Source: Microcoleaceae cyanobacterium (GTDB lineage: Bacteria; Cyanobacteriota; Cyanobacteriia; Cyanobacteriales; Microcoleaceae). From it: 30,379 bases of DNA. Positions 6,315-30,379 of this stretch are shown here, in pieces. Under the pieces are notes generated by a model that was given only the letters and a program-made list of their open reading frames with translations, did no database searches and was not told where the DNA came from. How positions within the stretch are numbered: the stretch's first letter is position 1; every line of letters begins with the position of its first letter. The position numbers and the translations under genes are program-made. The stretch is from positions 1-30,379 of the forward strand of contig JBOFUV010000021.1 of assembly GCA_051652765.1 (NCBI GenBank). The letters run 5' to 3'.

Positions 6315-6408
6315 TATTTTAGACTCATTATTTTTTTGACCGGCAAATCCAAGAGATATAGACAACTTTCTCGATTGTAGGTGAAAGCTGTACATTTTCT
6401 CAAACTAT

Positions 6409-7476
6409 TTAGACTTCTGCGTTAACGACAAGTTCTCCGCCCATAATTATTTTCTTTAAATCAAGTAGCGTCATCACATGATCGCAGTATGAAGCCGCTC
6501 CTTGAAAGTATTCAGTTTCTTTACTACAGACAGAGATTGGCACAGCTTTAACCATGGCTGGATCGAGATAAACAATATCAAAAATATCATCTACATTGAT
6601 TCCAGCAACAACATTATCTACCTGAATAATCATGACTCTCCTTAGGTGTTTAATAGATCTTAAAGGCAGCTTAAGCACACCGCAGAGATCAACTAACGTC
6701 ACGATTTCACCCCGAAGATTCATATTGCCAATAATGTGACTTGGTGTACAAGGAATCGGTGTAACTTTTTTCGTCTCAGTAAACTCTCGGATTAGATTCA
6801 AGGGTACTCCAAAATACTCCCCATGAAGTCCAATAACAGCGATTGGAGCTTTTCCTAAAATATCTTTTTCTTGATTTTTTTTAATTAAATTATTTGCTCT
6901 TTCATGAAAGATGGCTTTTTCTTCTGAAGTGGCGTTTGGGCAAAATTCTAGAGTTCTTAAGTTTATTTGGGCGCTCGCATCGCTCTCAGAATATTGTAAG
7001 CCTTTCGGATTTTGCGAATTGAGTCTAGTTTGAGTCAATGCTTTTACGTCTACCAGGGTAATCACTCGATTTTCAATCTGAGTGATTCCCTTAAAAAAGG
7101 AAATGTTAGAGTAATCTAGTTCTGATTTTTTAGGACTTTCAAATGAAGGATTTAAAAAGGTATTGGTAATTGCTGTTCCTGCAATATTTTCTAAATATTC
7201 GACTTGACTGACCAACAGTCCAAGTTGAATATTTTGATGGGCGATTACGATCACAGTATCAGTTAAAGTATAGTTCAAATTAAGAGTGGTAAAATAGGCG
7301 TTAAAATCAAAAACAGGCAGTAGTTCACCCCGAAGATTGATTGCCCCAACAATTCCTTTCGGAGCATTTAGAATCGGTGTAAATTCAGGAAGAAAGAAGA
7401 TTTCGTGAACCGCAGCAGCTTCAATTCCGTAGATCAAGTAACCAATTCTAAAAACAAGATAGGGATGAATTTTCAT
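6409..7476 (-). CDS. cheW: CheW protein with two tandem CheW domains
   Basis: Two copies of the G-x-x-NLRGE motif (GAINLRGELLPV; GNMNLRGEIVTLVDL). Confidence 0.92.
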   Translation of the reverse strand: MKIHPYLVFRIGYLIYGIEAAAVHEIFFLPEFTPILNAPKGIVGAINLRGELLPVFDFNAYFTTLNLNYTLTDTVIVIAHQNIQLGLLVSQVEYLENIAGTAITNTFLNPSFESPKKSELDYSNISFFKGITQIENRVITLVDVKALTQTRLNSQNPKGLQYSESDASAQINLRTLEFCPNATSEEKAIFHERANNLIKKNQEKDILGKAPIAVIGLHGEYFGVPLNLIREFTETKKVTPIPCTPSHIIGNMNLRGEIVTLVDLCGVLKLPLRSIKHLRRVMIIQVDNVVAGINVDDIFDIVYLDPAMVKAVPISVCSKETEYFQGAASYCDHVMTLLDLKKIIMGGELVVNAEV

Positions 7477-7478
7477 AG

Positions 7479-7503
7479 TTAGTCTCCATAATTAGTCTCC
7501 ATA
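7479..7503 (-). promoter_or_regulatory. Duplicated ribosome-binding region upstream of cheW
   Basis: Minus strand TATGGAGACTAA-T-TATGGAGACTAA-CT-ATG: a 12-bp direct repeat, each copy containing GGAG. Confidence 0.6.
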
Positions 7504-7526
7504 TAATAAACTACTCTAAAAAGCAA

Positions 7527-8960
7527 TTAGGAATTTATTATAGTTTCAATGGAAGCTGTAAGTTCAGCAACTGTAATTTCTCCAGCATATTCAACCTGAC
7601 TTGTATTCGGTAGTTTTCGCAGTAGCTCTAAAGCCGTTTTATAGAGCTTTAGAGCTTTTTCAAAATTATCTTCCTGTTCCAAAATCGCTGCCATTTTAGT
7701 ATATGCAAGGATGGCTGAAGATGAAAATCCAGCCAAATAAATAATCCGTTGGGCAAGTGTTTTAGCTTTTTCCATATCACCTGTTTCATCAGCAATGTTT
7801 AACATTAGATACCAGGGTAAAATAGAGAAGGAGTTAATCTGCAAGGCTTTTTCGCAGTGAAAATTAGCCTGGGAATATTGACCTAGATTGGCATGAACTT
7901 CAGCTAAAAGGCAGTGAATTTCAAAGTTATCAGAGTTATTTTTAATAACCTGATCGGCGGCTTGAATAGCCTCAGCATATCGTTTTTGTTGAACAAGTTG
8001 ATCAATAAACCTGGATTCAGTTGCCGGACTGAGTGAATGAGTTGCAAGAAAACTCTCTGTTCCTGGAGGACTGATCGGCTGAAAACTTGACTGAATAATA
8101 TCAGACTTTGGTGGGATGCTAGACGCTGAACTCGGCTCACGTTGGTAGATCACTGATTCCGGAAAAACCACAATTTTAAATGGATTATTAACAAGTTGTT
8201 GAATCTCAGCATGACCTGTGATCAAATATCCTTCTGGGCACAGAACTTGATGGAACTTGCAAATCACTTGATTAATATAGTTTTTATCAAAATAAATTAG
8301 GACATTTCTGCAAAGAATAAGGTCAAGATCTTGCAAAAGGTGAGCTTGACTAAAAGCATCTCCAATCAAGTTGAACTTGGAAAATTTAACAGAGTTTTGG
8401 ACTTTAGGATTGATTTTCCAGGAATCACCATAAGGGTGAAAATATTGGGCTTGAATATCAGGATCAACTCCTCGAAATGACCAAGAGTTATAGATTCCAG
8501 CTTGTGCCTTCTCCAGAACGAGGGGATTGATATCAGTACCCATAATAAGAATCTGCCATTGCTGCCAGTTTGGGAGAAGTTGTTGGAGCAGAATCGACAG
8601 GGAATAGGGTTCTTCTCCGGTGGAACATCCGGCACTCCAAATCCGCATAGTTTTTGTTAGTTTGCGTCGATCAATAATTTCAGGAAGAATAGTTTGCCCT
8701 AGGAGTTTAAATTGACCTGCATCTCGAAAAAAATAACTTTCAGCCGTTGTTAATAATGGAATCAATTGATTCCACTCCATTTGACTGGCTTGGAGATTGG
8801 CTTGGAGTAGAGTGTAGTAATCTTCCGAGCTAGATAGATTCAGCGCTCGAATTCGGGATTGGATTTTCTGAGAAAAACTTGCATAGTCTTTAGGTCGAAT
8901 GTAGCCGCCAATTCGATCCGAGACGAGCTGGATAAATTTTTTCAGCAGAATTTGATCCAT
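7527..8960 (-). CDS. cheR: CheR protein-glutamate O-methyltransferase with C-terminal TPR region
   Basis: ESYFFRD, RIWSAGCSTGEEPYS, GTDIN, DLILCRNVLIYF, GHAE; helical TPR-like C-terminus. Confidence 0.95.
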   Translation of the reverse strand: MDQILLKKFIQLVSDRIGGYIRPKDYASFSQKIQSRIRALNLSSSEDYYTLLQANLQASQMEWNQLIPLLTTAESYFFRDAGQFKLLGQTILPEIIDRRKLTKTMRIWSAGCSTGEEPYSLSILLQQLLPNWQQWQILIMGTDINPLVLEKAQAGIYNSWSFRGVDPDIQAQYFHPYGDSWKINPKVQNSVKFSKFNLIGDAFSQAHLLQDLDLILCRNVLIYFDKNYINQVICKFHQVLCPEGYLITGHAEIQQLVNNPFKIVVFPESVIYQREPSSASSIPPKSDIIQSSFQPISPPGTESFLATHSLSPATESRFIDQLVQQKRYAEAIQAADQVIKNNSDNFEIHCLLAEVHANLGQYSQANFHCEKALQINSFSILPWYLMLNIADETGDMEKAKTLAQRIIYLAGFSSSAILAYTKMAAILEQEDNFEKALKLYKTALELLRKLPNTSQVEYAGEITVAELTASIETIINS

Positions 8961-9152
8961 CAAAAATTTGAGGTTAACAGTCTAGAATGTCAGGATACAG
9001 AGCTTAGACGATTTTTTTATAGGTAACCTAGCTAAGGCCGCTGTTTGCGGTATCGTTATGTTTGCGTTCATCTACGAGATCACCGTATCGGATTATAATT
9101 TCTTTCAGATTTAAGACTCAAACGGCTGTTAATGATTGCGGGTGTAAGTGGG

Positions 9153-9848
9153 TTATTGTGCGATTAGCTTACGCCCTCCATATACAGAAAAATTGTAGTA
9201 TTTCCAAACAACATCAACTTCTGCAAAACCAATAGTTTGCAGCCAAGCTAATTGACTCATTAGACTAGCCGGATGATCTTCGTTGTAGTGCCGAGGTATC
9301 CACTTTTGTTCAATTTCCTCTACCGAAACTTGCAGACGCATGTACTCTTGCCATTTCTCCAGATAACGCTCTTGGAGATCAGAACTAGAGCCTAAAATCA
9401 CATCAGCATTATAAAAAACACCACCCAGATTTAGACAATCATAAATCTTTTTGTAAAGCCTAATTTTGTCATCATCACTCACTAAATGATGCAGAGCAAG
9501 TGAGGAGACAACGACATCATAGGTTGTATCGAACTCATAGTTTTCAAGATTTGCAAGCTGATAACGCAAATTATCTCCAGCATCACCAAGTTTTGCCTTT
9601 GCTATCTGCAACATCTTCTCCGCAATATCAACGCAGGTAATTTGAGCTTGAGGATAAAGACCTTTAATTCGTTGTGCAATTGTTCCTGTTCCACACCCAA
9701 GATCAACTACACGAATAGATTGGAACGGATTGAATGGCAGTACCGTAATGAGGGCATCAAGCATTTGCTCATAGTTAGGAATAAGGCGACGAATAGTTGC
9801 GTCGAACTCTCGAGCTTCTTCTTCAAAGTGTTGTTTAACCTTCTCCAC
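9153..9848 (-). CDS. Class I SAM-dependent methyltransferase (GTG start)
   Basis: VVDLGCGTG motif I, VDIAEKML, YDVVVSSLALHHL, LNLGGVFYNAD. Confidence 0.9.
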   Translation of the reverse strand: MEKVKQHFEEEAREFDATIRRLIPNYEQMLDALITVLPFNPFQSIRVVDLGCGTGTIAQRIKGLYPQAQITCVDIAEKMLQIAKAKLGDAGDNLRYQLANLENYEFDTTYDVVVSSLALHHLVSDDDKIRLYKKIYDCLNLGGVFYNADVILGSSSDLQERYLEKWQEYMRLQVSVEEIEQKWIPRHYNEDHPASLMSQLAWLQTIGFAEVDVVWKYYNFSVYGGRKLIAQ

Positions 9849-10009
9849 TATAACCCCTTTTCAGTTAACGACAAGCTTACATTGATGGCTAGTATGAAAT
9901 GCAGACAAGAACGCTGCAGATCTAGATGTACATTTAACAGTCTTTCCCGGATCTTACTTGTAGCAAATACCTGAGTATTTCATATCACTCTAACAGATGG
10001 CTTTGCAAC

Positions 10010-12979: not shown

Positions 12980-13067
12980 GAATACCCTGGATCTGATGAA
13001 AAATTTTATACCTTAGATCTAGGTTTAGTCTGTTGATTAAGCCCGTAATTCTTTTCAGAACTTTGCG

Positions 13068-13823
13068 ATGAATACTACTCGTCTTGTGTCGGTTTCAGCC
13101 TTATCAAACTCAGAACGAGAAGCGCTCTATTTATTATTTTCTACACATTTTGAGGGAGTTAAACCAGAGATCTTTACGGCAGATCTAAATGAGAAAAATT
13201 GGGTGATCTTACTCGAATCCAAAGGAATCCTCAAGGGATTTTCTACCTTATTATTCTATACAACTCAATTTAAAAATACATCCCTAAATGTCATTTACTC
13301 TGGAGACACCATTGTTGACCCAAGTGCCTGGTCAAGTCCAGACCTTTCAAAAGCTTGGATCGCAACAGTGCAATATTTACAAACAACTGCTCCCGAGAAT
13401 AAACTCTATTGGTTATTGATTTCTTCTGGTTATCGCACCTACCGTTTTCTGCCAATATTCTGGAAAGCGTTTTTTCCTCGATATGATGTCACCACTCCAA
13501 CTTGGGCACAAGACTTAACTGAATTTTTGGCAAGCAATCGCTTTGGGCAATACTATGATCCAAGCACAGGAATTGTGCGGTTTCCTAGTCCTCAAATTTT
13601 GCGTTCTCTATTGCAGGGCATTCCCTCTGAGCGATTGCGTGACCCCCACATTTCATTTTTTCAAACCCAAAATCCAAGTCACTTTCAGGGTGATGAACTA
13701 GTTTGTTTAACAGAAATTTGTGAACCAAATCTCACTCCCGCAGGTCGAAGAATGTGGTTTAATCAATCTCTTAAATTGGAAATCTGCGATCGCCCCCAAG
13801 CCTCTGAACTTGCAATACTGTAA
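13068..13823 (+). CDS. Hypothetical protein, probable GNAT-like fold; first gene of the GH3/Rieske cluster
   Basis: 251-aa ORF, stop overlaps next ATG (TAATG); pattern LKGFSTL...YSGDTIVDPSAW...YWLLISSGYRTYRFL resembles acyltransferase-fold proteins (inference). Confidence 0.7.
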   Translation: MNTTRLVSVSALSNSEREALYLLFSTHFEGVKPEIFTADLNEKNWVILLESKGILKGFSTLLFYTTQFKNTSLNVIYSGDTIVDPSAWSSPDLSKAWIATVQYLQTTAPENKLYWLLISSGYRTYRFLPIFWKAFFPRYDVTTPTWAQDLTEFLASNRFGQYYDPSTGIVRFPSPQILRSLLQGIPSERLRDPHISFFQTQNPSHFQGDELVCLTEICEPNLTPAGRRMWFNQSLKLEICDRPQASELAIL

Positions 13824-14878
13824 TGGAAACTAACCTAAAATCATCTGAAACAGTTCAACACAATCAGACCATAATTTTTAATCATCCAAAAATTTTTAAT
13901 CATCCAAACTGCTTTATTGAAGGTTGGTACTGGGCACTTCCGTCCCATCACCTCAAACAAGGTCAGGTCAAACCTGTTACCCTGCAGGGACGGGAACTCG
14001 CAGTCTATAGAGGATTTGACGATCAAGTTGTAGCCCTAGATGCCTACTGTCCTCACATGGGAGCCCATCTTGCCGAAGGCAAAGTGGAAGAAAATAGTTT
14101 GCGCTGCTTATTTCATAACTGGAAATACGATGCTTTTGGTCACTGTATTGAAGTTCCCTGTTTAAAGAAAGCTTTACCCATTCAGATCAAAACCTGGCCA
14201 ACACTAGAAAAGTATGGTTTAGTGTGGGTTTGGACAGGAAAAACACCGCAGCAACCACTGCCATTTATTCCTGAATTGCAACATGAAACCTGTGAGACAG
14301 TGCTAGGTTCTCGCTTTATCAGAAACTGTCACCCTAATGTAGTGATGATTAACGCGATTGATGCCAATCACTTTAACACTGTTCATCAGTTGCCCTTAGA
14401 AATTGTATTTCAAGCCCAAGAATTTGACTACAATACTATTACTTTTAACAACATTACACGGGGAGGTGAAGCATCTAATTTCATTAAACTTATTCGACAA
14501 TTCTATCAAAATAAAGTGACTTATAAAATGTGCTATTGGCAAGGTAGTATTGGAACAGTTACATTGGGGCCAGACTTCCTACATTTTTATATCATGTTTG
14601 CTCTCCGGTTACTGCCAGACGGAAAAACAGAAGGTCAAACCATTCTGATGGCCAAAAAGCGTTCTGGCTTGATCGGGTGGGGATTGAACCAACTGATTTT
14701 GAAGTTAACACAATGGGTTGCAAGCTACTTCGCTAAAGGAGACACTCGAATTTTTCAAACGATTAAATTCAACCTCAAAACCCCAACTAAAGCAGACCAA
14801 TCTATCTTGCAATTTATTCAGCATGTGGAGCAGCAAAAAGCAATAGACTTTGAAACCTGGGAACCAATTCAATCCTGA
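13823..14878 (+). CDS. Rieske non-heme iron oxygenase 1
   Basis: CPH...CLFH Rieske ligands; NAIDANHFNTVH mononuclear Fe motif; distal Asp (KGDTRIF). Confidence 0.92.
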   Translation: METNLKSSETVQHNQTIIFNHPKIFNHPNCFIEGWYWALPSHHLKQGQVKPVTLQGRELAVYRGFDDQVVALDAYCPHMGAHLAEGKVEENSLRCLFHNWKYDAFGHCIEVPCLKKALPIQIKTWPTLEKYGLVWVWTGKTPQQPLPFIPELQHETCETVLGSRFIRNCHPNVVMINAIDANHFNTVHQLPLEIVFQAQEFDYNTITFNNITRGGEASNFIKLIRQFYQNKVTYKMCYWQGSIGTVTLGPDFLHFYIMFALRLLPDGKTEGQTILMAKKRSGLIGWGLNQLILKLTQWVASYFAKGDTRIFQTIKFNLKTPTKADQSILQFIQHVEQQKAIDFETWEPIQS

Positions 14879-14959
14879 GATAACTATTAAAGAGAATTAG
14901 ATTTGTGATGGATTACTGCCAAGTTCACCCTCATAAAAAATCAGCTAAAGAGAACTTAA

Positions 14960-15928
14960 ATGATGAATTATATGCCTACAGTTTCTGGATTTAACTTGTT
15001 GTCTGCCAACTCGAACCACAAACTTAATCGAGTTTTTAGATTGATATTTGGACACGAAGAAAGTGCTAATACTTATGAGTTAAATACGACTAGTCTTCCT
15101 TGGAATTCAACTTATTTTAGGCTAGATCAAGTAAGAATTTTTCAAGAATCAACTCTACAAGAACAACAGAGCATTCTCAAGTTAGCCAATCAAAGCCTGT
15201 TAGAAGAAGCTTACTTTATTGAAAAAGCTGGAATGGGATATATGGCAAAGATGGTGTTGCTAGCAGACACCCTAGAAGAACGAATGCTCTATAGCCAGTT
15301 CAGTGCTGATGAAGCAAATCATTTGGCTCAAATTCGACGATTTTTTCCAAGTACTGAACCAACTCAACCTAATAATATTTTTTTAAATTTTCTGGCAGAT
15401 TTGGTTGAGCACTCTGACAAAACAATTCTGTTATTCGTTCTGCAAGTTGTTCTAGAAGGTTGGAGTTTAAGCCATTATCGACAACTTGCAAAATATTGCC
15501 AAAACCCCCAGGTGGGTCAAATTTTCCAAAACTTTCTTCAGGCTGAAGCCTATCATCATACAACAGGAGTAGCTTTGTTTCAAAAACATCAAGTTTCTCT
15601 CACAAGTCAAACAATATTAGTCGAAATCTTGAGTCAATTTCTCAATATGATCCAGGCAGGCCCTCAAGGAATTCTGGCTACAATCAAGCAGGTTAAAGGA
15701 GATTTATCTCAAGCTCAAAAACTACAAATTCTCCAGGACTTAGATGCTAAGTCCCATAGCCAAAAGCGCTTGAATTTATTGCGATCATTAATGAATTCTT
15801 CAGCCAGTCAAATTGTTCAAGACCTAGAAGAACATAACTTGTTCCAGCCTTTTTCTCTGGAATACTGTGTCAGCTTGTCTAATCAAGCAATGATTTTGAA
15901 TCCAGCACAACATTCTCCGATTTCTTGA
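14960..15928 (+). CDS. Ferritin-like diiron protein
   Basis: FIEKAG, DEANH, VLEGW, AEAYH: two E...ExxH sets. Confidence 0.8.
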   Translation: MMNYMPTVSGFNLLSANSNHKLNRVFRLIFGHEESANTYELNTTSLPWNSTYFRLDQVRIFQESTLQEQQSILKLANQSLLEEAYFIEKAGMGYMAKMVLLADTLEERMLYSQFSADEANHLAQIRRFFPSTEPTQPNNIFLNFLADLVEHSDKTILLFVLQVVLEGWSLSHYRQLAKYCQNPQVGQIFQNFLQAEAYHHTTGVALFQKHQVSLTSQTILVEILSQFLNMIQAGPQGILATIKQVKGDLSQAQKLQILQDLDAKSHSQKRLNLLRSLMNSSASQIVQDLEEHNLFQPFSLEYCVSLSNQAMILNPAQHSPIS

Positions 15929-15955
15929 AGTTTTTAGATAATAGCTAAAATCACT

Positions 15956-17158
15956 ATGACCATCGCAAGCAACAAAACAAATACTCTGCTAGCACATTCA
16001 ACTATTTGTCGAAAACTAGAACTTAATTATAAGCGTAATCAGCAACAAGATCATACTCAACTTCTAGATCAAGCTGCCTCTGAATTTCGATATCAAGACT
16101 GTGAAAAGGAATATTGGAATCCCGAAGAATTTTCTCTCTTATATGGTACTCCACTGTGGGAGCAAGCGAGTCAATATCAGCGGACAATTCTCAATCAACT
16201 CTATTGGGTTGCCTATTATTCACAAATTATTTCGGCTGAAATTGCAACTATCTTTTTCAATCAAACGAGTGCTGCTGGACTCTATTCTCAAGAGGACTTT
16301 CGTTTAGTTTGTGACACTTTAGATTTAGAATCTGCTCAAGAACGGGCTCACATTAATGCATTTAAAGCTATTTCTGAACAGGTAGAAGAGAAACTATTTG
16401 GCAAACGCATTTTTACTTATCAAATGCGAACTCCATTTACAGAGACAATGATCTATACAGAGACCAATCGACTGAAACGAATCTGGAAAAATCTTCAACT
16501 TCAAAGCTTTGGTGTGCTCTCAGCAAATAGTCCCTTTCTAGCTTGTCAATACTTTACAGTGAGGGGTATACGAACCTTAAATGGCAAATTAGTTCAGCAT
16601 AAACTCAGCCAATATTATCAGAAACATCCTCAACCTGATCAAGCTCCAATTCCAGCCAAGATTTCATATTATCATTTTATGGATGAGAGCTTTCACTTTA
16701 ATAGCTCGACAATTCTATCCCATGAAGTTGTGAATTGCTTGCCTCAACCAAATTTTTTAGAAAAACAAATTTTCAACTTAGGATTACGAGGTTGCCAGCA
16801 AGATCACTATCATTTTTCCACTGCAATTAATGGGATTTTTTGGTATGATCCAGCACTTTACTCTGCAATTCATCAGATTTTATACTCAAGAATTTTCAAT
16901 ATGAATAATCGCGATGCAAAGGAGATCATACGACAATGCTTTACTCAAGAAACTGAAGGACTCCATCGCAGTTATCAAACTCATCGAGAAGCAATAGACT
17001 CTTACAAAGCCTACTTAGAAAAAGTCAACGATACTTGGAAAAGTAATCGAGAGATGTTAATTATGTCATCAAATTCAATTGCCAAATATCTATTGATTCA
17101 AAACCAGCAATTCTCTCGATTTAAACAAATAAATATTAATTCGGATTTATCCCAATGA
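15956..17158 (+). CDS. AurF-like (ferritin-like) diiron oxygenase
   Basis: SLLYGTPLWEQAS N-terminal pattern, SAEIA, QERAH, MDESFH. Confidence 0.78.
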   Translation: MTIASNKTNTLLAHSTICRKLELNYKRNQQQDHTQLLDQAASEFRYQDCEKEYWNPEEFSLLYGTPLWEQASQYQRTILNQLYWVAYYSQIISAEIATIFFNQTSAAGLYSQEDFRLVCDTLDLESAQERAHINAFKAISEQVEEKLFGKRIFTYQMRTPFTETMIYTETNRLKRIWKNLQLQSFGVLSANSPFLACQYFTVRGIRTLNGKLVQHKLSQYYQKHPQPDQAPIPAKISYYHFMDESFHFNSSTILSHEVVNCLPQPNFLEKQIFNLGLRGCQQDHYHFSTAINGIFWYDPALYSAIHQILYSRIFNMNNRDAKEIIRQCFTQETEGLHRSYQTHREAIDSYKAYLEKVNDTWKSNREMLIMSSNSIAKYLLIQNQQFSRFKQININSDLSQ

Positions 17159-17183
17159 TCAATCTATATAATCTACAAGAAAA

Positions 17184-18179
17184 ATGAGGATTTTCAATAA
17201 TTGGAATGTACTTGTAAAAGGTTGGTATATTGCTTGCCCCAGCCAAAAGCTATTAGAAGGTCAAGCAAAATCTATTACAATTTATGGAAAGAGAATCGTT
17301 TTGTTTCGGGGAGAAAATCGTCAAGTCCGAGCTTTAGATGCCTACTGTCCACATCTTGGAACTGATCTGGGTATTGGAACTGTTGAAGGGAATTGGATTC
17401 GATGTTTTTTTCATCATTGGGCTTTTGATGGTGCTGGGAACTGTCAAGAGATTCCTTGTCAATCTAGTATTCCAAAGAAAGCCCATTTACAGGCTTATGC
17501 AACGGATGAGAAATATGGATTTATCTGGGTTTATCCTGAAACAACTGCACCTGAAGGGGTCGCTGAATTTGATGAGTTAAAAGGAAAATCTTTGGTTTTT
17601 CAGCATGATAAAGCGTTTAAGCGTCACTGCCATCATCACATTTGTATGATGAATGGTATTGATGTTCAGCACCTTCAAACTGTGCATCAAATCAATATTA
17701 AGATGGAGTTACTTACTCAACAAAATCAATTGGGAAACGTCATTGATTTTACCCTTAAAGGTCAGTTTCCTAAAACAACATGGCAAGAACAAATTATTCA
17801 AAAAGTTTTAGGTGAACACTATGAGTATTCTATGCGATACGCTGACGGATGCCTAGGACTTCTAACGATTATGAAAAACGTGAAGCTGATTCCTCGACTC
17901 TATATGATCTATTCTTATTTGCCTCTCACTTCAGATCAAACTCAGATTCAACCTATTTATATTGCTGAGAGAAGACCTGGAATTTTAGGATGGATACTAA
18001 CTCAAGTTTTATTATTACTGACTCGAATTGCTTACTATGCTTTACGAGGGAAAGATGGCCAAGTCTATGACAATATTTGTTTTAATCCAAATGCCATTTT
18101 AGAAATTGACACTCCCTTGGTGAAATATATGAATTATGTCAATACACTAGAAATATCGAGTTGGTCAAGAAGTAACTAA
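17184..18179 (+). CDS. Rieske non-heme iron oxygenase 2
   Basis: CPH...CFFH; NGIDVQHLQTVH; distal Asp (KDGQVY); paralogous to 13823 (ALDAYCPH). Confidence 0.92.
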   Translation: MRIFNNWNVLVKGWYIACPSQKLLEGQAKSITIYGKRIVLFRGENRQVRALDAYCPHLGTDLGIGTVEGNWIRCFFHHWAFDGAGNCQEIPCQSSIPKKAHLQAYATDEKYGFIWVYPETTAPEGVAEFDELKGKSLVFQHDKAFKRHCHHHICMMNGIDVQHLQTVHQINIKMELLTQQNQLGNVIDFTLKGQFPKTTWQEQIIQKVLGEHYEYSMRYADGCLGLLTIMKNVKLIPRLYMIYSYLPLTSDQTQIQPIYIAERRPGILGWILTQVLLLLTRIAYYALRGKDGQVYDNICFNPNAILEIDTPLVKYMNYVNTLEISSWSRSN

Positions 18180-18190
18180 AATGTTTCTGA

Positions 18191-18299
18191 TGCAGCAATC
18201 TGATTTGAGATGTGGATATGGAGTGGGCATCTTGCCCGCACAGGCTACAATCCTGCACCATAGACATCTCCATCTCATAAATTATTACGGATAACTATA
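18191..18299. mobile_element. MITE-like dispersed repeat inside the cluster
   Basis: GCAGCAATCTGATTTG...GGAGTGGGCATCTTGCCCGC...CATCTCATAAATTATTACGGATAACTATA aligns with the reverse complement of 21061-21161. Confidence 0.7.
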
Positions 18300-18314
18300 G
18301 ATTTCTAGCTAATA

Positions 18315-18614
18315 ATGATGAACCAGAATTCTTGCATTATTCGATTTCCAGGGACAATCTATTCAGCCGTTACCTTAGAGAAGTTCGCTAATCTTTCTGA
18401 ACATTTAACTATACAAAACTCCCCAGTTTTATTTGGTTGTCGAACAGGAGTCTGTGGGATTTGTGTGGCTGTAATTCAAGGAAAAATTCCTCTAGCTAAT
18501 GTGGCTGAACAAGAAATTTTAGAGGTAATTGCCCCTGGAAATTCTCAGATTAGACTAGCCTGTCAAATTGATCTAACTCATGATATCGAAATCACTCCAT
18601 ACATTGAAAAATGA
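18315..18614 (+). CDS. 2Fe-2S ferredoxin
   Basis: FGCRTGVCGIC (C-x4-C-x2-C) and RLACQ; ATGA overlap with next gene. Confidence 0.92.
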   Translation: MMNQNSCIIRFPGTIYSAVTLEKFANLSEHLTIQNSPVLFGCRTGVCGICVAVIQGKIPLANVAEQEILEVIAPGNSQIRLACQIDLTHDIEITPYIEK

Positions 18615-19636
18615 CCAGATTTGAAGATTTTTGGTATGTTGTTGCAGAGAGTCGCCAACTTAAACCTAATGTTGCTTTGAGCCGAACAGTTTTGAATGAG
18701 TGGCTAGTTGTATTTCGAGGAAAAGATGGGCAGCCTGTGGTTTTGCGCGATCGCTGTATCCACCGCAATAGTCGTTTATCTGGTGGCATTGTCCAAGAGG
18801 GTAATTTACACTGCCCCTATCATGGCTGGGTTTATAACCAAAAAGGTCAAGTTATTGTCGTTCCCTCAGAAGGAGAAAACCCCAAAAATTTGGCTCAACA
18901 CTGTACTCAATATTATGAAACTCAGGAACAAGACGGCTATGTTTATGTGCGGTTAGCTCTTAATCCAATTGACAAATTTCACCCTTTTAAAATGCCACAT
19001 TATGGTGAACTAAACTGGGAAACTGTACGAGTTATTAATCGGTTTCAAAACACCCTGACTAACTGTATTGAAAACTTTATTGATATTCCTCATACGGTCT
19101 CTGTACATCCTGGAATTTTTCGCAAGCCGTGTCAGCAAAGGTTAGAAATGACTGTTACTAGACGACAAGGATCTGTTATTGCAGAATATCAGAATGAAAG
19201 CAGAAATCTGGGCTGGTATACTAAATTTCTGAACAGTCAAAAGCAAGAAGTTCGACACATTGATCAATTCTTGATGCCAAATGTTACCAATGTTGAATAT
19301 GACATCAGTAAGAATAGACAATTATTTATTACTAGTCAATCTATTCCAGAGACAGAAAACTCAACCCTAGTTTATACGGATGTTACCTACAACTATGGAA
19401 TTTGGAATAAAATAGCACGGCCCTTCGTTCATTGGACAGCTCAGAAAATTATTAGACAAGATATTAATATTCTAAATATTCAGAAGCAGGTAATTGATAA
19501 GTATGGAACTCATTTTACTCATACTCCTGCCGATACAATTCATGTTTTTGTAGAGTCTATTTTCCGTGCTTTAGTCCAGGGAAAAGATCCAGAAGAACTT
19601 TCAGAACAATCTGCTCAAATCAGTTTTTGGGTTTAA
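18611..19636 (+). CDS. Rieske non-heme iron oxygenase 3 (VanA/CAO-like architecture)
   Basis: DRCIHR...CPYHGW; ENFIDIPHTVSVH; IIRQD. Confidence 0.92.
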   Translation: MTRFEDFWYVVAESRQLKPNVALSRTVLNEWLVVFRGKDGQPVVLRDRCIHRNSRLSGGIVQEGNLHCPYHGWVYNQKGQVIVVPSEGENPKNLAQHCTQYYETQEQDGYVYVRLALNPIDKFHPFKMPHYGELNWETVRVINRFQNTLTNCIENFIDIPHTVSVHPGIFRKPCQQRLEMTVTRRQGSVIAEYQNESRNLGWYTKFLNSQKQEVRHIDQFLMPNVTNVEYDISKNRQLFITSQSIPETENSTLVYTDVTYNYGIWNKIARPFVHWTAQKIIRQDINILNIQKQVIDKYGTHFTHTPADTIHVFVESIFRALVQGKDPEELSEQSAQISFWV

Positions 19637-19662
19637 TCTAAAGTTAAAGTAATGAATAGATT

Positions 19663-20382
19663 ATGATCATTTTAATCACATTCTGGAGTTTAATTTTAGT
19701 TACAGTTATTGATTCTAAGCAATGGAAAATACTTTGTGAAAAAAGCATACATGATTGGATTCTAGATGTTATGGGATTATGTATTCAAGGTATCGTAATT
19801 CCTTTATTACAATTAGTTTTGGTCTATCAAATTTATCAAGTTCTAGTTCCTCAGTTGCATCATGTTCTATTTTTATCTCCAGTCTGGCAGTTTTTGATTA
19901 GTTTTATTGCGATTGATTACCTATATTATTGGAACCATCGCTTGCTGCACAATCATTGGCTTTGGCCACTACATCAAGTGCATCATACAGTTACTCAATT
20001 TGACGTTGTCGGAACCTCTCGAAATAGCCTTTGGACAAGCTTCTTTATTCTCTATCTCTGGATTCATGCTCTGTTTATTTATTTACTTCAAGATGCTAAT
20101 GGTTATTTATTTGGAGTCAGTTTAACAGCCTCTTTTGATCTCTGGCGACATAGTTCAATCACTTTTGCAGGAGACTTACATCATATTCTTGCTAGGTTTT
20201 TAATCTTGCCCCAGGATCATGCTTTGCACCATAGCACTTCTGCTACTGTTCAAAACTATGGAGCCAACCTAAAGCTTTGGGATCAGATTCATGGTACATA
20301 CACCGAAGCCAAGGACTTTCCCAAACATTTGGGAGTTAAAATTCAGCTCAAACTGTGGCAAAAAATCCTTTTACCATTCTAA
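19663..20382 (+). CDS. Sterol desaturase / fatty-acid hydroxylase family membrane diiron enzyme
   Basis: His boxes YWNHRLLH, HQVHH, HALHH; NYG..L.LWDQIHGT; several TM helices. Confidence 0.9.
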   Translation: MIILITFWSLILVTVIDSKQWKILCEKSIHDWILDVMGLCIQGIVIPLLQLVLVYQIYQVLVPQLHHVLFLSPVWQFLISFIAIDYLYYWNHRLLHNHWLWPLHQVHHTVTQFDVVGTSRNSLWTSFFILYLWIHALFIYLLQDANGYLFGVSLTASFDLWRHSSITFAGDLHHILARFLILPQDHALHHSTSATVQNYGANLKLWDQIHGTYTEAKDFPKHLGVKIQLKLWQKILLPF

Positions 20383-20397
20383 TTTACATATCATAAT

Positions 20398-21024
20398 ATG
20401 ACTATTCTTAGTAGAATTTTGTCACTTTTTCCAGCTCTAATAATATTGATTTCTGCAGCGTTATTTTTATGGCTACTTTATGCTCCTAGAGTCCTTGTTT
20501 TTATAGCTCTCATCTTTTTAATTTATGGCTTTCCATTATTAGTCTATCGAGTCCATCACTATTTTTATCCTGTTAAATCTGGCATCAGTTACTTACAAGA
20601 TTGTGGGTATTCTCCCTGGTGGGGCAGTCATCAAATTCAAGCGATTTACATTGCCTTTCCGATTTTTGAAACAGTTTTGAGATTAATTCCAGGGGCTTTT
20701 TCTTGTTGGTTAAGATTATGGGGATCGCAGATTGGCAAGGATGTTTGCTGGACATCTCAGTTGGAAATTGCTGATCGGGGATTGTTAGAAATTGGCGATC
20801 GCGTTGTGTTTGGTCATGGAGTTGGGCTGTATTCTCACATTATCAAACCCAAAAAGCAAAACTTAATGCTTTATATTAAACCGATTAAGATTGGCAGTGA
20901 TACTTTTTTAGGAGCCTGGAATCATATTGGCCCAGGAGTAAAAATTGAGTCCAGTAGTTACCTTCCTGTCGCAACTCATCTTTATCCAAATCGAAAAATA
21001 AATGAGTCTATTCATACTAAATAA
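20398..21024 (+). CDS. Membrane-anchored hexapeptide-repeat (left-handed beta-helix) acyltransferase
   Basis: N-terminal TMs; LRLWGSQIGKDV, LLEIGDRVVFG, IKIGSDTFLG..IGPGVKI. Confidence 0.82.
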   Translation: MTILSRILSLFPALIILISAALFLWLLYAPRVLVFIALIFLIYGFPLLVYRVHHYFYPVKSGISYLQDCGYSPWWGSHQIQAIYIAFPIFETVLRLIPGAFSCWLRLWGSQIGKDVCWTSQLEIADRGLLEIGDRVVFGHGVGLYSHIIKPKKQNLMLYIKPIKIGSDTFLGAWNHIGPGVKIESSSYLPVATHLYPNRKINESIHTK

Positions 21025-21060
21025 TTAGCAAAAATTAGAGTGTTAATGTCTTGTCAACAA

Positions 21061-21161
21061 GTAGCAATCCCAAATAATTCATGAGATGGTGTTGTGCAAT
21101 TTTCCAACTTGTGCGGTCAAGATATCCACTTCACACCCACACTGCAAATCAGATTACTATA
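21061..21161. mobile_element. MITE-like dispersed repeat, inverted relative to the 18191 copy
   Basis: GTAGCAATCCCAAATAAT...CAAATCAGATTACTATA; reverse complement aligns along its length with 18191-18299. Confidence 0.7.
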
Positions 21162-21213
21162 GGCAAATTACCCGCCCTCAAGCTTTGCAACTTAAACCAG
21201 ATTATTACATACT

Positions 21214-22746
21214 ATGATTTCTGTATTTGTTCAGTTATTTGGAAAGTTCTTATCCCCTGTTGCTCAACAATTTAATCAAGCTTTGATGAATCCTAAAGCG
21301 GCACAAAGAGCTGTACAATTAGAGCTAATCAACGGATTAATTCAAACAGAGTATGGAAAGTTTTATAATATTAATGGTGTTGAAGATTGGCATAGGCTTC
21401 CAATTGTAGATTATCCAGAGATTGAATCCTGGATTCATCGCCAACAAAATAGTCACGCTCATCTGATCACACCGCACCCAATTTTATTCTATGAAACAAC
21501 CTCTGGAAGTACGGGCAGTAACAAGCTAATTCCCTATACTCCAGCCTTGAAATCTTCCTTTAATCGAATGTTTTGTATCTGGGCTTATGATTTAATCAAA
21601 AATGGCCCAAAGTTCTCAACGGGTCAAGTTTATATGTGTATTTCCCCTACATTTGCCCGTGAAGGTGATTCTAAGATTAAAGGTTTTGAAAAGAATTTGA
21701 AAGATGATTCAGAATATCTAAATTGGGGGTTGAAATTAGTATTAAAACCTTTTTTAGTTGCTTTAAATGGGCTGGGTTCTGCACGAAATGCTATGGAGTT
21801 TAAGCATCAACTGGCAATTAATTTAATCTTGGCACAACGATTAGAAATCATCTCAATTTGGAGCCCAAGTTTTTTAATCACTATTCTGAATTATATTCAA
21901 GAAAATCGTGAGATTCTTTGTCAGAAACTTCAAACTCGGCTTTCATTGAAAAGGGTTCAGATTCTCTCTAGTCAGAGAATTGATTGGGAAAAACTTTGGC
22001 CTCATTTAAAGCTGATTTCCTGCTGGAATAGTGCCATGGCTGCGGACTCAGCCAAACATTTAAACTCCTATTTTCCCACGGTGATGGTTCAGGGAAAAGG
22101 GTTATTAGCAACTGAAGCTCCACTGACAATTCCACTCATTGCTGCTCAGGGTTATATACCTGTTTTACAGGAAGTCTTTTTTGAGTTTGAGGATAGTCAA
22201 GGTCAAATTTATCACCTTGACCAGATTCAAACTGGAAAAGTTTACTCTATGATTGTGTCTCAAAAAGGGGGATTATACCGCTATCGAATTGGTGATCGCG
22301 TCAGTGTTAGTCATTTTTATCAACATACGCCCTGTTTAGAATTTCTGGGGCGAACTCAAACCACTACTGACTTAGTCGGAGAAAAATTACATTGTGATTT
22401 TGTTGCCGCTGTTCTGGCAAGTTTATCGCTTCAAGCGGCAACATTTAAAACATTAATTCCAGTTCGACAGCCGATGCCTCACTATCTTTTACTCCTCGAT
22501 CAAACATCCCAGTCAGTGGAGGAGATCGCTCAACAACTCGACCAAGCTTTGATGCAATCCTATCACTATCGCTATGCTCGTCAATTGGGTCAACTGGCTC
22601 CCGTCACAGTTCAAGTCTCCTCTCAAATTCCTGAAATTTTAGCAACTCAGCGACTCACTTCAGGAACTCGATGGGGTGATGTCAAGTTTCCACTTCTAAC
22701 CTTAAATCCTTGGGAAACAGAAACAGAATTGATCAGTCTCAATTAG
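21214..22746 (+). CDS. GH3-family acyl-adenylate-forming amide ligase
   Basis: TTSGSTG..KLIPYT P-loop, GLLATEA, GGLYRYRIGDRV, FLGR, DLVGEKL. Confidence 0.9.
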   Translation: MISVFVQLFGKFLSPVAQQFNQALMNPKAAQRAVQLELINGLIQTEYGKFYNINGVEDWHRLPIVDYPEIESWIHRQQNSHAHLITPHPILFYETTSGSTGSNKLIPYTPALKSSFNRMFCIWAYDLIKNGPKFSTGQVYMCISPTFAREGDSKIKGFEKNLKDDSEYLNWGLKLVLKPFLVALNGLGSARNAMEFKHQLAINLILAQRLEIISIWSPSFLITILNYIQENREILCQKLQTRLSLKRVQILSSQRIDWEKLWPHLKLISCWNSAMAADSAKHLNSYFPTVMVQGKGLLATEAPLTIPLIAAQGYIPVLQEVFFEFEDSQGQIYHLDQIQTGKVYSMIVSQKGGLYRYRIGDRVSVSHFYQHTPCLEFLGRTQTTTDLVGEKLHCDFVAAVLASLSLQAATFKTLIPVRQPMPHYLLLLDQTSQSVEEIAQQLDQALMQSYHYRYARQLGQLAPVTVQVSSQIPEILATQRLTSGTRWGDVKFPLLTLNPWETETELISLN

Positions 22747-27233: not shown

Positions 27234-28223
27234 ATGACTGCATTGTGGACACGCCGCCATATTTTGTCCTTAGCTGACTTTACGCCAGAAGAGTACAATA
27301 CCGTATTACAAACTGCCCTCAGTTTCCGCGAAGTTCTCGGTCGGCGCACCAAAAAAGTTCCGGCCCTTCAGGGTCAAGTTGTTGCCAATCTTTTTTTTGA
27401 ACCCTCGACCCGAACTCGCAACAGTTTTGAGCTAGCCGCGAAGCGACTCTCCGCAGATATCTTAAATTTTGCTCCGGGTACTTCATCGCTCTCTAAAGGA
27501 GAAACGATCCTCGACACTGCCAAGACTTACTTAGCCATGGGCACTAATATGATGGTGATTCGCCATCAGCAAGCGGGTGTTCCGATGGCGATCGCCACCG
27601 AGTTGGATCGGCTCAAATCAAAGGTTTCTGTGCTCAATGCCGGAGATGGTCAACATGAACATCCCTCCCAAGCTTTGCTAGACTTATTTACCCTGTGCAC
27701 CCTGTTGAGCCCAGATCAGCCCCAAGTAGAACTGCTTCAAGGGAAAAAAATTGCCATCATTGGAGACATCTTGCACTCTCGGGTTGCCCGTTCTAATCTC
27801 TGGAGTTTGACTGCAACAGAAACAGAGGTACATTTGGCCGCTCCCCCGACCTTGTTACCGCAATTGTTTGATATCTATGATCATGAACGGCCAGGTCAGG
27901 TTATGCTTCACTGGGAATTAGAGCCTGCCTTAGAAAATGCAGACTTTGTGATGACCCTACGTTTACAACGGGAGCGGATGACCGATCATCTGTTGCCCAG
28001 CCTGCGAGAATATCATCAATGCTATGGAATCAACCACAATCGCTTGAAACTTTGTAAACCTGGTGTCAAGATTCTACATCCCGGCCCAGTTAATCGGGGG
28101 GTAGAAATTAGCTCTGAACTGATGGACGATCCTGACTTCAGTCTGATTGCCCAACAAGTCACCAGTGGGGTTGCTGTCCGTATGGCCTTACTTTACCTGA
28201 TTGCTGGAGGGGGAGATACATAA
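27234..28223 (+). CDS. pyrB: Aspartate carbamoyltransferase catalytic subunit
   Basis: [54 protein letters not shown]. Confidence 0.98.
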
Positions 28224-28321
28224 TTAATGTCATTCACAAATTCATCATAATCTGTTCTATATTCATGAGAATCAGAAATGATATTTAAAAGCTCCTTCCC
28301 TGAAGTTATTCTTGTCAAAAA

Positions 28322-28413
28322 TCTTAACGGCTTGCGCTTCATCGGACGGCAATGGAGTTTGTAACACAATTAATTGGGTTTGCCGCCGTTCCATGTGCAA
28401 GCGCTTGTTAGGC
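28322..28413 (-). mobile_element. Integron attC site 1 (closes the brnTA cassette)
   Basis: Minus strand R'' GCCTAAC (contains the brnA TAA stop) ... R' GTTAAGA; 92 bp imperfect palindrome. Confidence 0.75.
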
Positions 28414-28686
28414 TTTGTGCTGAGTTTTGTTGTTCTCTATATATTGGCGTAAAACATCGTTAATTAGAGTTTTATACTGTTCTCCTTGAGCCTGAAACCA
28501 CTGCTTCACATCGGGATCAAGCTGAACTAGGTTATGGGCTTGATCTGCTGGAACACGTAAAGTTGCTCTTTCAAAAAATTCATCTGTCAGCGGTGGAATA
28601 TCTGAATAATCAATATTCTCTTCTGACCTTGACTCTAAAGCTGCCCAGTTAGTACGAGAGGTACTGCTCAAATCGTTTCTGCTCAT
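28408..28686 (-). CDS. brnA: BrnA-family antitoxin
   Basis: TNWAAL, IDYSDIPPLTDEFF, LDPDVKQWF...YKTLINDVLRQY; overlaps the brnT 3' end. Confidence 0.9.
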   Translation of the reverse strand: MSRNDLSSTSRTNWAALESRSEENIDYSDIPPLTDEFFERATLRVPADQAHNLVQLDPDVKQWFQAQGEQYKTLINDVLRQYIENNKTQHKA

Positions 28687-28926
28687 GACGGTTTGCTCTT
28701 CGTGCTGAAATGATTCGGATTACATCTTTCTGACGTTCTGTCCAGACTATCACCGCTATTCCAAAACCGAGAAACCCAATTCCGAACCAGCGATCTTCAC
28801 CATAATCCAAACGATCATCTAGCTCAATCAGCATTTCACCATCAAACATTGAGGGAACATCGGCAAAATCAATTTCATGTTTACGAATGTTTTCAAGGTT
28901 TTTGTTTCATCCTGCTCAAATTGCAT
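28649..28926 (-). pseudogene. brnT: BrnT-family ribonuclease toxin, frameshifted near codon 9
   Basis: ATG 28926 gives MQFEQDETK; the BrnT-like continuation NLENIRKHEIDFADV...YGEDRW...IRIISARRA is in another frame; one base is missing in the T5 run 28899-28903. Confidence 0.85.
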
Positions 28927-29037
28927 GAAGGGTTAGGGTATGCCAGATCAAGCTAATTTCTTTTATCATCACATATTCAGATGAAGTGATCTCATTATGG
29001 ACTGGAGATCCATGATCTAATCGTAATAAATATCAGA

Positions 29038-29121
29038 GCCTAACGGTGAAGTTGTGCGGCGGTAGACAACATTTAAACGCAGCAAAAAATCTTTATCTGC
29101 CGCTCCAACGACTTGTTAGCT
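29038..29121 (-). mobile_element. Integron attC site 2 (closes the mazEF cassette)
   Basis: Minus strand R'' AGCTAAC ... R' GTTAGGC; + strand arms GTTG-T-GCGGCGG / CTGCCGC-TC-CAAC; 84 bp. Confidence 0.78.
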
Positions 29122-29128
29122 GGCGCTG

Positions 29129-29473
29129 TTAAAGGTACAAGATTGTTCGTAGTCCCTCATCTACCTCTTCCTGCAAATGCTCTGATAATGAACCAATACG
29201 TTCAACCAGAAATGTTTTATCGACTGTGAGAATTTGAGATACGTTAGCCACTGAATCCTTAGATAAGCCTGTTACTCTTTGTGGCAACAATACATTGCCT
29301 GGAGCTTCTGCCAACTGAATATTTGAAGTGATAATTACAACAATGACCGTACTGATACAACTTTGAGTAAAAGTATCATCCTGAACCACCAAAACAGGAC
29401 GACGATAGCCAGGTTCTGAGCCTATCGGATCGGGTAAATTCGCCCACCAGATCTCTCCCCGATACATTACCAA
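29129..29473 (-). CDS. mazF: PemK/MazF-family endoribonuclease toxin
   Basis: RGEIWWANL.DP.GSEPGYRRPVLVVQ, ITSN, GLSKDSVANVSQILTVDK. Confidence 0.93.
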   Translation of the reverse strand: MVMYRGEIWWANLPDPIGSEPGYRRPVLVVQDDTFTQSCISTVIVVIITSNIQLAEAPGNVLLPQRVTGLSKDSVANVSQILTVDKTFLVERIGSLSEHLQEEVDEGLRTILYL

Positions 29474-29703
29474 TCCTCACGGGATAGAGACATAAATTGC
29501 ATTCTTGCCATCACCGGATCTAGTTCAGAAGGCTCTTGAGAGTAAACCTGATTTAGCTTAAGCAAAATTTGATTACGGTTGTACTTCTTCAAATACGCTT
29601 GTAACGCTTTCGTGTAAAGTTCGCTGCGCGACAATCCTAACTGCTGGGCTAGTGCTTCTGCCTCTTCAAAAACTGAATCTGGAAGGGAAATCGCAGTTCT
29701 CAT
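29467..29703 (-). CDS. Ribbon-helix-helix antitoxin cognate to the PemK/MazF toxin
   Basis: MRTAISLPD...LAQQLGLSRSELY RHH pattern; stop overlaps the toxin start. Confidence 0.88.
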   Translation of the reverse strand: MRTAISLPDSVFEEAEALAQQLGLSRSELYTKALQAYLKKYNRNQILLKLNQVYSQEPSELDPVMARMQFMSLSREDW

Positions 29704-29824
29704 AATAATCTGAACTGAATTCCTACTCTTCAGTTATATCTTAGTTATGCCGGAACTGCAAGAATCAGTAAGCTCAAATACTAGCAGGTAGCCTCTTTGT
29801 ACGCCCCAAGCCAAAAACGAAGCC

Positions 29825-29911
29825 AGCTAACGGTTGAACTCACCCGCCGCCAACAGCTTCAGAATTAATCCAGTAATGCTATTGCAGGTCGGGTGCAGTG
29901 ATTGGTTAGCT
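29825..29911 (-). mobile_element. Integron attC site 3
   Basis: Minus strand R'' AGCTAAC ... R' GTTAGCT; + strand arms ACT-CACCCG-CC / GG-T-CGGGTG-C-AGT with two extrahelical bases; 87 bp. Confidence 0.82.
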
Positions 29912-30036
29912 TGACTTGGGCGAGCTGACTGTCTCTTAACTCAGCAAAACGACCAGCGCAGATGATACAAACCCTCTCTCAACATAGTCAGTCGCCCTTC
30001 GGTTCAACTCCACTGGGAAACTGTGGTGCGCTGGCA

Positions 30037-30122
30037 AGATAACGGCTCGCTTGAGCGGCTGCGAACAACTTTTGCAATGCACCAACATCTTTCGGCAGTC
30101 CGCTCCAAGCGAATTGCTATAC
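30037..30122 (-). mobile_element. Integron attC site 4 (R'' mutated)
   Basis: + strand TCGCTTG-AGCGG-CTGC / GCAG-T-CCGCT-C-CAAGCGA with two extrahelical bases; minus strand R' GTTATCT, R'' GTATAGC containing the upstream gene's TAG stop; 86 bp. Confidence 0.78.
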
Positions 30123-30377
30123 GGCTCCACCGCCACAACCTCCGCCACCGCAACCCCCGCCGCCACAACCTCCGCTACCACAACCACTACCGCCGTCACT
30201 ACCACCAGAGTCACTAGAATTATGACTACCAGAATCACCCCCACCCCAGCCACCTCCAATACGAGGACGTGAAGGATTTTTGATGAAATCTACTATTCCC
30301 ATAAGAATCCGTATCGCTCCAAATCCTGCGGCAACACAAATAGCGGCGAGTAAAATTCCTGCGAATGGATTGATATT
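30117..30377 (-). CDS. 3' part of a membrane protein with a Gly/Ser/Cys-rich C-terminal tail (starts beyond the window)
   Basis: Frame open to the window edge: NINPFAGILLAAICVAAGFGAIRILMGIVDF (TM) ... GGSGCGSGGCGGGGCGGGGCGGGAV*. Confidence 0.75.
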   Translation of the reverse strand, partial: NINPFAGILLAAICVAAGFGAIRILMGIVDFIKNPSRPRIGGGWGGGDSGSHNSSDSGGSDGGSGCGSGGCGGGGCGGGGCGGGAV

Positions 30378-30379
30378 GC

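Follow-up and report, generated by a model that had tools for sequence, protein, structure and literature searches.

Four attC sites beside pyrB as the likely far end of an integrase-less array in a cyanobacterial genome with 21 attI copies

Contig JBOFUV010000021.1 of the Microcoleaceae cyanobacterium assembly GCA_051652765.1 ends in a row of small genes set between hairpins, just past pyrB, with no integrase gene beside them. Is this the far end of an integron, or a group of attC sites without an integrase (CALIN; two or more attC sites and no whole intI close by, PMC4889954, 2016), and how would cassettes have reached it? The window analysed here is this complete contig, 30,379 nucleotides long (C21 below), of an assembly of 5.04 Mb in 158 contigs that is 99.97% complete. 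The origin of CALINs is still debated and attI is undefined for most integrons, and this genome bears on both questions. The 2016 study lists cyanobacteria among the genomes with integrons, proposes intI loss and mobilisation in trans, and describes attI as unknown for most integrons and not searchable. Published attC models and integrons already include cyanobacteria (PMC4889954, PMC8352920).

We consider it likely that the four attC sites of the window form the distal end of an array with about eight cassettes, at whose head stand an attI and a 22-codon intI stub, and that this array is one of 21 integrase-less platforms probably filled by an integrase acting in trans.

attC sites and cassettes of the window

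The four hairpins in the window are real attC sites (Table 1). They have R''/R' cores (RYYYAAC...GTTRRRY) and paired L boxes that form a bottom-strand hairpin, and a covariance model (R1), trained on 22 attC sites from other cyanobacterial genomes and one cyanobacterial plasmid, matched all four on the plus strand over the full model each time; the sole further match in the remaining window had an E value of 0.76. The sequence-only reading had called four attC palindromes here and had named failure of an attC covariance model on all of them as part of what would count against it; our own model instead matched four of four, at E 2.8e-17 to 1.1e-6. R1 is not fully independent, because its training sites were located by a profile seeded from this genome, and we therefore added a training-free rule scanner, which is sequence-free (R and L boxes, extrahelical base; threshold 12). 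Among control loci this scanner found class 1-3 attC sites in all six class 1-3 plasmid loci and missed an Alteromonas array. In the window it scored sites 2-4 at 13.5-15 with the minus strand as top strand, left site 1 (10.5) under the threshold, and gave one unrelated match (score 13.0, at 5733); none of 200 shuffles of the window tail contained two or more such sites. Both methods agree with the earlier assignment of the plus strand as the attC bottom strand, which places the minus-strand genes in cassette orientation.

Both extrahelical bases are present in each of sites 3 and 4, as had been read from the letters, while sites 1 and 2 are partly degenerate or eroded and the fold of site 2 is no better than that of shuffles (z -0.29). 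The plus-strand terminus of site 4 is GCTATAC, with TAGC in place of TAAC. Covariation across 54 sites of the genome also speaks for attC: 84% of cells are paired, 15 of 20 pairs have changed on both sides, and the score is 0.394 versus 0.139 when shuffled and at most 0.105 when slid. An exact-repeat search did not reveal the sites, and a crude palindrome scan was noisy and was replaced by the other scans.

Table 1. Features of the window at the pyrB end of the array
Feature	Position	Strand	Remarks
pyrB (aspartate carbamoyltransferase)	27234..28223	+	chromosomal flank convergent with array; Pfam OTCace_N + OTCace
Single-copy chromosomal sequence	28224..28327	.	past last crossover point (G|TTAAGA); without repeated right end
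attC site 1	28322-28413	+ (bottom strand)	92 bp; degenerate; distal array end; R1 E 1.1e-6; rule score 10.5; fold z -2.23
brnT/brnA cassette	28328..29043	-	716 bp; opens TTAGGC, closes GCCTAAC
brnA antitoxin gene	28408..28686	-	Pfam PF14384 E 2e-10; stop (TAA) within R'' of site 1
brnT toxin gene	28649..28926	-	frameshifted near start; PF04365 E 1.1e-14 for 3' part; T run 28899-28903 on plus strand
attC site 2	29038-29121	+ (bottom strand)	84 bp; second bulge eroded; R1 E 2.4e-13; rule score 14
mazF/PemK toxin + ribbon-helix-helix antitoxin cassette	29044..29830	-	787 bp; opens TTAGCT, closes AGCTAAC; junction match 4/4; mazF PF02452 E 2e-29 at 29129-29473; antitoxin PF12651 E 4.6e-5 at 29467-29703
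attC site 3	29825-29911	+ (bottom strand)	87 bp; both extrahelical bases; part of gene-less cassette; R1 E 8.8e-14; rule score 15
Gene-less cassette	29831..30042	-	212 bp; 125-bp body at 29912-30036; attC site 3
attC site 4	30037-30122	+ (bottom strand)	86 bp; R'' = GTATAGC; both extrahelical bases; R1 E 2.8e-17; fold z -3.48
Membrane-protein cassette, 3' part	30043..30379	-	glycine-rich tail; two-copy; contig ends inside

Read along the minus strand, the window holds the 3' part of a membrane-protein gene, the gene-less cassette, the mazF/RHH cassette, the brnT/brnA cassette, some 100 bases of single-copy DNA and the pyrB 3' end. The two toxin-antitoxin cassettes have the matching ends of excisable circles that had been proposed for them (G/TTAGCT with AGCTAAC, G/TTAGGC with GCCTAAC), and the stops of brnA and of the last gene (TAA and TAG) both fall inside R'', again as described. 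Two statements of the sequence-only reading held in part. The palindromes said to separate the genes are real sites, but sites 3 and 4 enclose a cassette with no gene; and the boundaries of the mazEF and brnTA cassettes match, but brnT is frameshifted, which had been missed, its start codon lying in a different frame from the rest of the gene. The toxin-antitoxin cassettes may have a stabilising role in the array; one of the two has this broken brnT. A brnT/brnA homologue about 88% alike is present in contigs from two metagenome studies, with an indel difference at the frameshift spot; its alignment starts at 28325, at the crossover core, and gives way to divergent sequence, the pattern expected of a cassette that sits in a different context. 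The membrane protein with the glycine-rich tail matched no Pfam or NCBIfam family.

Searched against the genome, positions 28220-28321 match only themselves. The genes downstream of pyrB differ between relatives, where a fixed gene order had been put forward as an argument against a cassette array. In the congener G002 a degenerate attC lies about 630 bases after pyrB (C106, L055:2069-2135), in the same orientation and with different genes; an older array may have ended at the 3' end of pyrB. Farther from the array, two stretches of the window are low in GC (6000-10000 and 13000-22000; 34-40% versus a genome mean of 46%), and a GH3-family gene at 21214-22746 adjoins.

Likely continuation of the array and the attI platforms of the genome

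The remark that no integrase was in view proved true of the assembly as a whole, in which no whole intI scored above the family cut-off and the longest fragment, which is frameshifted, spans residues 1-117; nor does the assembly hold a high-identity 3' intI remnant. A whole intI could be hidden, because the assembly is without contigs under 1,614 bases and may lack plasmids.

The end of C21 matches the start of C30 without difference for 127 bases or more, and C146 and C132 likewise share identical ends; these four ends are one two-copy cassette whose middle was dropped by the assembly. C146 enters this cassette directly from an attI. C132 enters it after three attC sites and has a unique 139-base overlap with C51, which carries one more attC, a 67-bp attI at 9414-9480 and a 22-codon intI stub. 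The attI of C51 lies between the intI start and the first cassette, with the array divergent from intI, and that first cassette opens TTAGGC and closes GCCTAAC. C132 and C146 each provide a TTATAC opening that matches R'' of site 4. The glycosyltransferase gene found on C146 adjoins, in G001 and G002, the gene that follows the C30 array, so that C146 pairs with C30 and C132-C51 is left for the window; synteny thus favours a putative join of the window to C132 and C51. This join rests on graph logic and synteny because the assembly lacks the middle part of the two-copy gene, and it has against it that the 5' and 3' pieces of that gene matched different homologues, not one protein.

The joined array would have eight attC sites, four of them in the window, and its added cassettes would carry a short-chain dehydrogenase, a DNA methylase with a partner gene, vapBC and unknown genes. 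Since both contigs able to precede the window lead to an attI and an intI 5' stub, the window array is likely the distal end of a decayed integron of about eight cassettes, with an attI and a dead intI stub, and not a headless cluster. The earlier proposal had left open whether the distal end of an integron or a CALIN sits after pyrB, and had pointed beyond the window for intI, attI and more attC; C132 and C51 supply four more attC sites, an attI and the stub, and favour the former. IntegronFinder's definition would still score the array as a CALIN, because no recognisable intI is nearby: there are more than the minimum of two attC sites, and in place of the intI that stands beside the array in a complete integron there is only the short 5' stub on linked contig C51. 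A crude scan of the C51 platform for a Pc promoter of the array gave no sigma-70 consensus match. A five-attC array for which no attI was found runs from C114:436-4700 into C146, upstream of the glycosyltransferase gene, and the upstream neighbour that this gene has in G001 and G002 sits here on a separate contig (C130).

Across the genome, an iterated profile gave 88 attC-like matches, or 89 with site 1 (below the final profile threshold and added by hand), in 39 clusters before contig joining, some of the 89 being weak or partial; R1 matched 72 of the 73 candidates scored. Of the 21 attI copies, which head different arrays, 16 carry an intI 5' stub, and a repeat tail is present in 13. On the reversed genome none of the five profiles found a match. 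At the 16 of 21 platforms that could be tested, R'' of the first attC agrees at 54 of 64 positions with the four variable bases that follow G|TT (null mean 37.0, and 0 of 20,000 permutations reached the value), and attC-to-attC junctions match at 122 of 160 positions (40 pairs; null 87.6). Cassette capture by recombination between attC and attI is established integron chemistry and fits these junctions, IntI presumably having recombined folded attC bottom strands into attI. No upstream attI was found for clusters on C114, C134, C144 and C156. One attC, at C22:53918-54006, is inverted relative to the other four of its array.

Because intI is absent, we infer that integrase was supplied in trans, and an enzyme from a lost or unassembled copy, or from a passing plasmid, could have served all platforms. 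The 58-kb plasmid pB of Kovacikia minuta (NZ_CP083584.1, L133) carries a whole integron, intI included, of the same attC family, and a plasmid of this type is a possible kind of source.

Relatives hold integrons in varied states. R1 found 0-24 candidates in each of 60 relatives, several of which had supplied training sites, with 0 and 17 in the two congeners. A whole intI is present in 5 of 61 genomes searched; in the order, intI is above the cut-off in 25 of 301 genomes, and truncated intI is common. About nine platform matches, variously truncated and multiple of them without tail, occur in G002, together with one full-length intI with a stop. On contig C63 of G002 (L099:2614-2898) intI is interrupted near codon 70 by an attC whose fusion point is precisely a G|TT, a natural event between an attC and a secondary site within the integrase gene. 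In G016 (C1:4478000-4510000; L059, L060) four tandem units each start at an attC G|TTAAAT and contain toxin-antitoxin genes, an intI copy (two whole, two broken), an attI and different cassettes, which makes an integron repeated in the manner of a cassette. Together, the G016 units and the C63 fusion suggest that IntI can treat the platform as part of a cassette.

Proposed multiplication of the platforms

A single chimeric module recurs in twelve platforms, joined in all of them at an identical base, with intI cut after codon 21. In order, it consists of 22-bp repeats in a variable tract, a tail 66 bp long, 63 antisense bases from the start of intI, as many as five boxes (mostly at a spacing of about 41 bases) and attI; copies are 81-95% alike pairwise over tail and stub. 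At its fixed end (...CTTCCATC) the 66-bp tail also adjoins other sequences, and it is absent from 8 of 21 platforms, the likely head of the window array among them. The 22-bp repeats may be iterons or transposase sites. Standalone 22-bp minisatellite tracts of the GAGATCAACGCGGGTTT type, lacking attI, are found at C49:7050, C63:18270, C109:8295, C134:30406, C145:12556 and C22:13274. The repeat-tail part of the module had no match in 60 relatives or in plasmids. Exact patterns for the long attI in the genome contig set, the module junction in metagenomes and the short attI in viral contigs gave none either; the short attI pattern in the genome contig set gave 11 loci, five in one cyanobacterial genome record and six in Nostoc records, the latter with no intI or attC within 1.5 kb.

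One platform stands at a site that is empty in two congeners. This was the only clean empty site among eight loci; at the other seven (two on C34, those on C64, C17, C82 and C22, and the window's kinase-pyrB pair) the flanks lie about 9 kb apart on one G002 contig in one case and on different contigs in six, including the window's locus. From the shared chimeric junction and the one empty site among these eight loci we infer that the platform multiplied by copying to new loci, the twelve copies probably descending from a single chimera of a 22-bp repeat element and an intI cut after codon 21. As the route of copying we would favour IntI-driven movement of compound cassettes containing attI, followed by erosion of intI, with transposase-driven movement as second choice. 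Against the first route, the stub breakpoints are off AAC/GTT (IntI-type breakpoints were sought for the intI stubs of this genome and not found); against the second, left boundaries within the repeats vary, and neither a conserved right end nor a target duplication was found for the platforms.

The second route would be the main one if the repeat and tail were the end of a MITE-like non-autonomous transposon, copied with the platform by a transposase in trans and not by IntI, a reading that differs from our preferred explanation in the copying step only and that we hold to be rather doubtful. The fixed tail end abutting other sequences, the repeat tracts without attI, the IS-like end left of several platforms and the known movement of class 1 integrons by MITEs and IMUs (PMC3575428) are consistent with it, but no second end, inverted repeat or target duplication was found after the arrays, and 8 of 21 platforms, including the likely head of the window array, have no tail, nor have multiple platforms in G002. 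An immobile platform is also conceivable if whole integrons arrived separately, by horizontal transfer or rearrangement, and their intI decayed in place while recombination between copies spread the truncation. We judge this unlikely: seven aligned stubs have seven different breakpoints, the copies (81-95% alike) look mosaic, and truncated intI is common across the order and is reported in Xanthomonas (10.1101/2025.06.18.660453), but the assembly is devoid of 3' intI remnants of high identity, the junction is the same to the base in twelve copies, and one platform occupies a site empty in two congeners.

Two further accounts concern the integrase and the head of the window array. A whole active intI might have been dropped by the assembly, making this an ordinary multi-array integron system; short contigs are indeed absent and repeats collapsed, and intI is over the cut-off in 25 of 301 genomes of the order, but a single-copy intI has about 600 unique bases plus flank, none of which was seen, and the 21 attI copies would stay unexplained, which makes this quite improbable. 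Least probable, in our view, is an array that never had a head, started by IntI-mediated cassette insertion at a chromosomal attG after pyrB and extended at attC, with attI copies elsewhere unrelated. The distal junction G|TTAAGA into single-copy DNA is what attG insertion would leave (10.1101/2022.09.11.507474), some clusters of the genome are without an upstream attI, and G002 has its degenerate attC after pyrB; against this, both candidate preceding contigs lead to attI and an intI stub and both give the TTATAC opening matching R'' of site 4.

Returning to the reading that we prefer, of platforms copied to new loci and filled in trans, we propose tentatively, as an idea with nearly as much for it as against it, that the docking module of about 450 bp may itself be a non-autonomous mobile element, present at no fewer than 12 loci with related stubs at about nine more, each capturing its own cassettes. 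The chromosome would then be a distributed integron with a visiting or a single remote integrase, and many cyanobacterial CALINs might be live attI-headed arrays invisible to current tools.

The integron platform is usually described as immobile by itself. Taken by itself, the window array is a known element of the ordinary sort; what is unusual is the multiplication of a defective platform throughout the genome. Like the CALINs of PMC4889954, the arrays are small and without a whole nearby intI; unlike them, the window array has likely kept its attI together with a 5' intI stub, in a genome with 21 attI copies. Insertion at attG, giving SALINs (Loot et al., 10.1101/2022.09.11.507474), accounts for scattered single or small attC clusters, and the distal junction of the window fits a secondary site, but it moves cassettes and not attI; that study found attI-genome recombination not to occur at a significant rate and cites 95% of CALINs as having no nearby intI pseudogene. 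Chromosomal integrons of Xanthomonas likewise retain variable arrays with truncated or deleted intI, at one ancestral locus (ilvD) with few exceptions, whereas here 21 platforms lie at unrelated loci (10.1101/2025.06.18.660453). Defective class 1 integrons flanked by MITEs or IMUs resemble our case in that a defective platform is moved by a non-coding element and an enzyme in trans, but have paired flanking elements, mostly with target duplications (PMC3575428), where this genome has a one-sided variable repeat tract in 12-13 coexisting copies, variable left ends and no shared right end. Among the titles and abstract openings of mostly open-access papers, our literature search found no description of a multiplied integrase-less attI module; cyanobacteria with many CALINs may be listed in the per-genome tables of IntegronFinder. 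The genome offers a cyanobacterial attI in 21 natural variants, for which junction matching gives validation, and 89 attC-like sites, and with a cyanobacterial plasmid that carries a whole IntI of that attC family, both the liveness of integrase-less arrays and the multiplication of the platform are directly testable.

The gene-less cassette

The gene-less cassette has no ORF, its own attC and matching ends (3 of 4 positions at the junction). Its profile matched 22 times in the genome, two of the matches being one locus split across overlapping contig ends, and the copies comprise 11 near-full and 10 partial loci. It had no match among 200 other genomes of the order, in which four candidates per genome were scored. 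Copies are preceded by differing attC sites and, in C50 and C67, stand directly at attI; these varied neighbours support the view that the cassettes have probably been mobile and, with the junction matches, lend indirect support to recombination of the attC sites by IntI.

ORF-less cassettes with their own attC, located in arrays and in first position, are reported from Vibrionaceae and Treponema, where they bear promoters (10.1101/2023.11.21.568050, PMC8876359); in ours, by comparison, a promoter would be putative, and its sigma-70 scan was not above chance. The scan for consensus promoters found 7 versus 3.8 +/- 1.9 in shuffles, and the one sigma-70-like match in the cassette (9/12), itself not above chance, has a -10 that differs in most other copies. 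No Rfam family matched, and a structured RNA in the body was considered and rejected (z +0.37 and +0.49).

Two copies, at C50:50265 and C68:1656, are broken at the same base by a short IS-like element, which is also found left of several platforms. A second short unit, starting TTGCCAGCGCAGCAGAG, follows two attC sites (C123:15947 and C34:110329) and resembles the start of the gene-less cassette.
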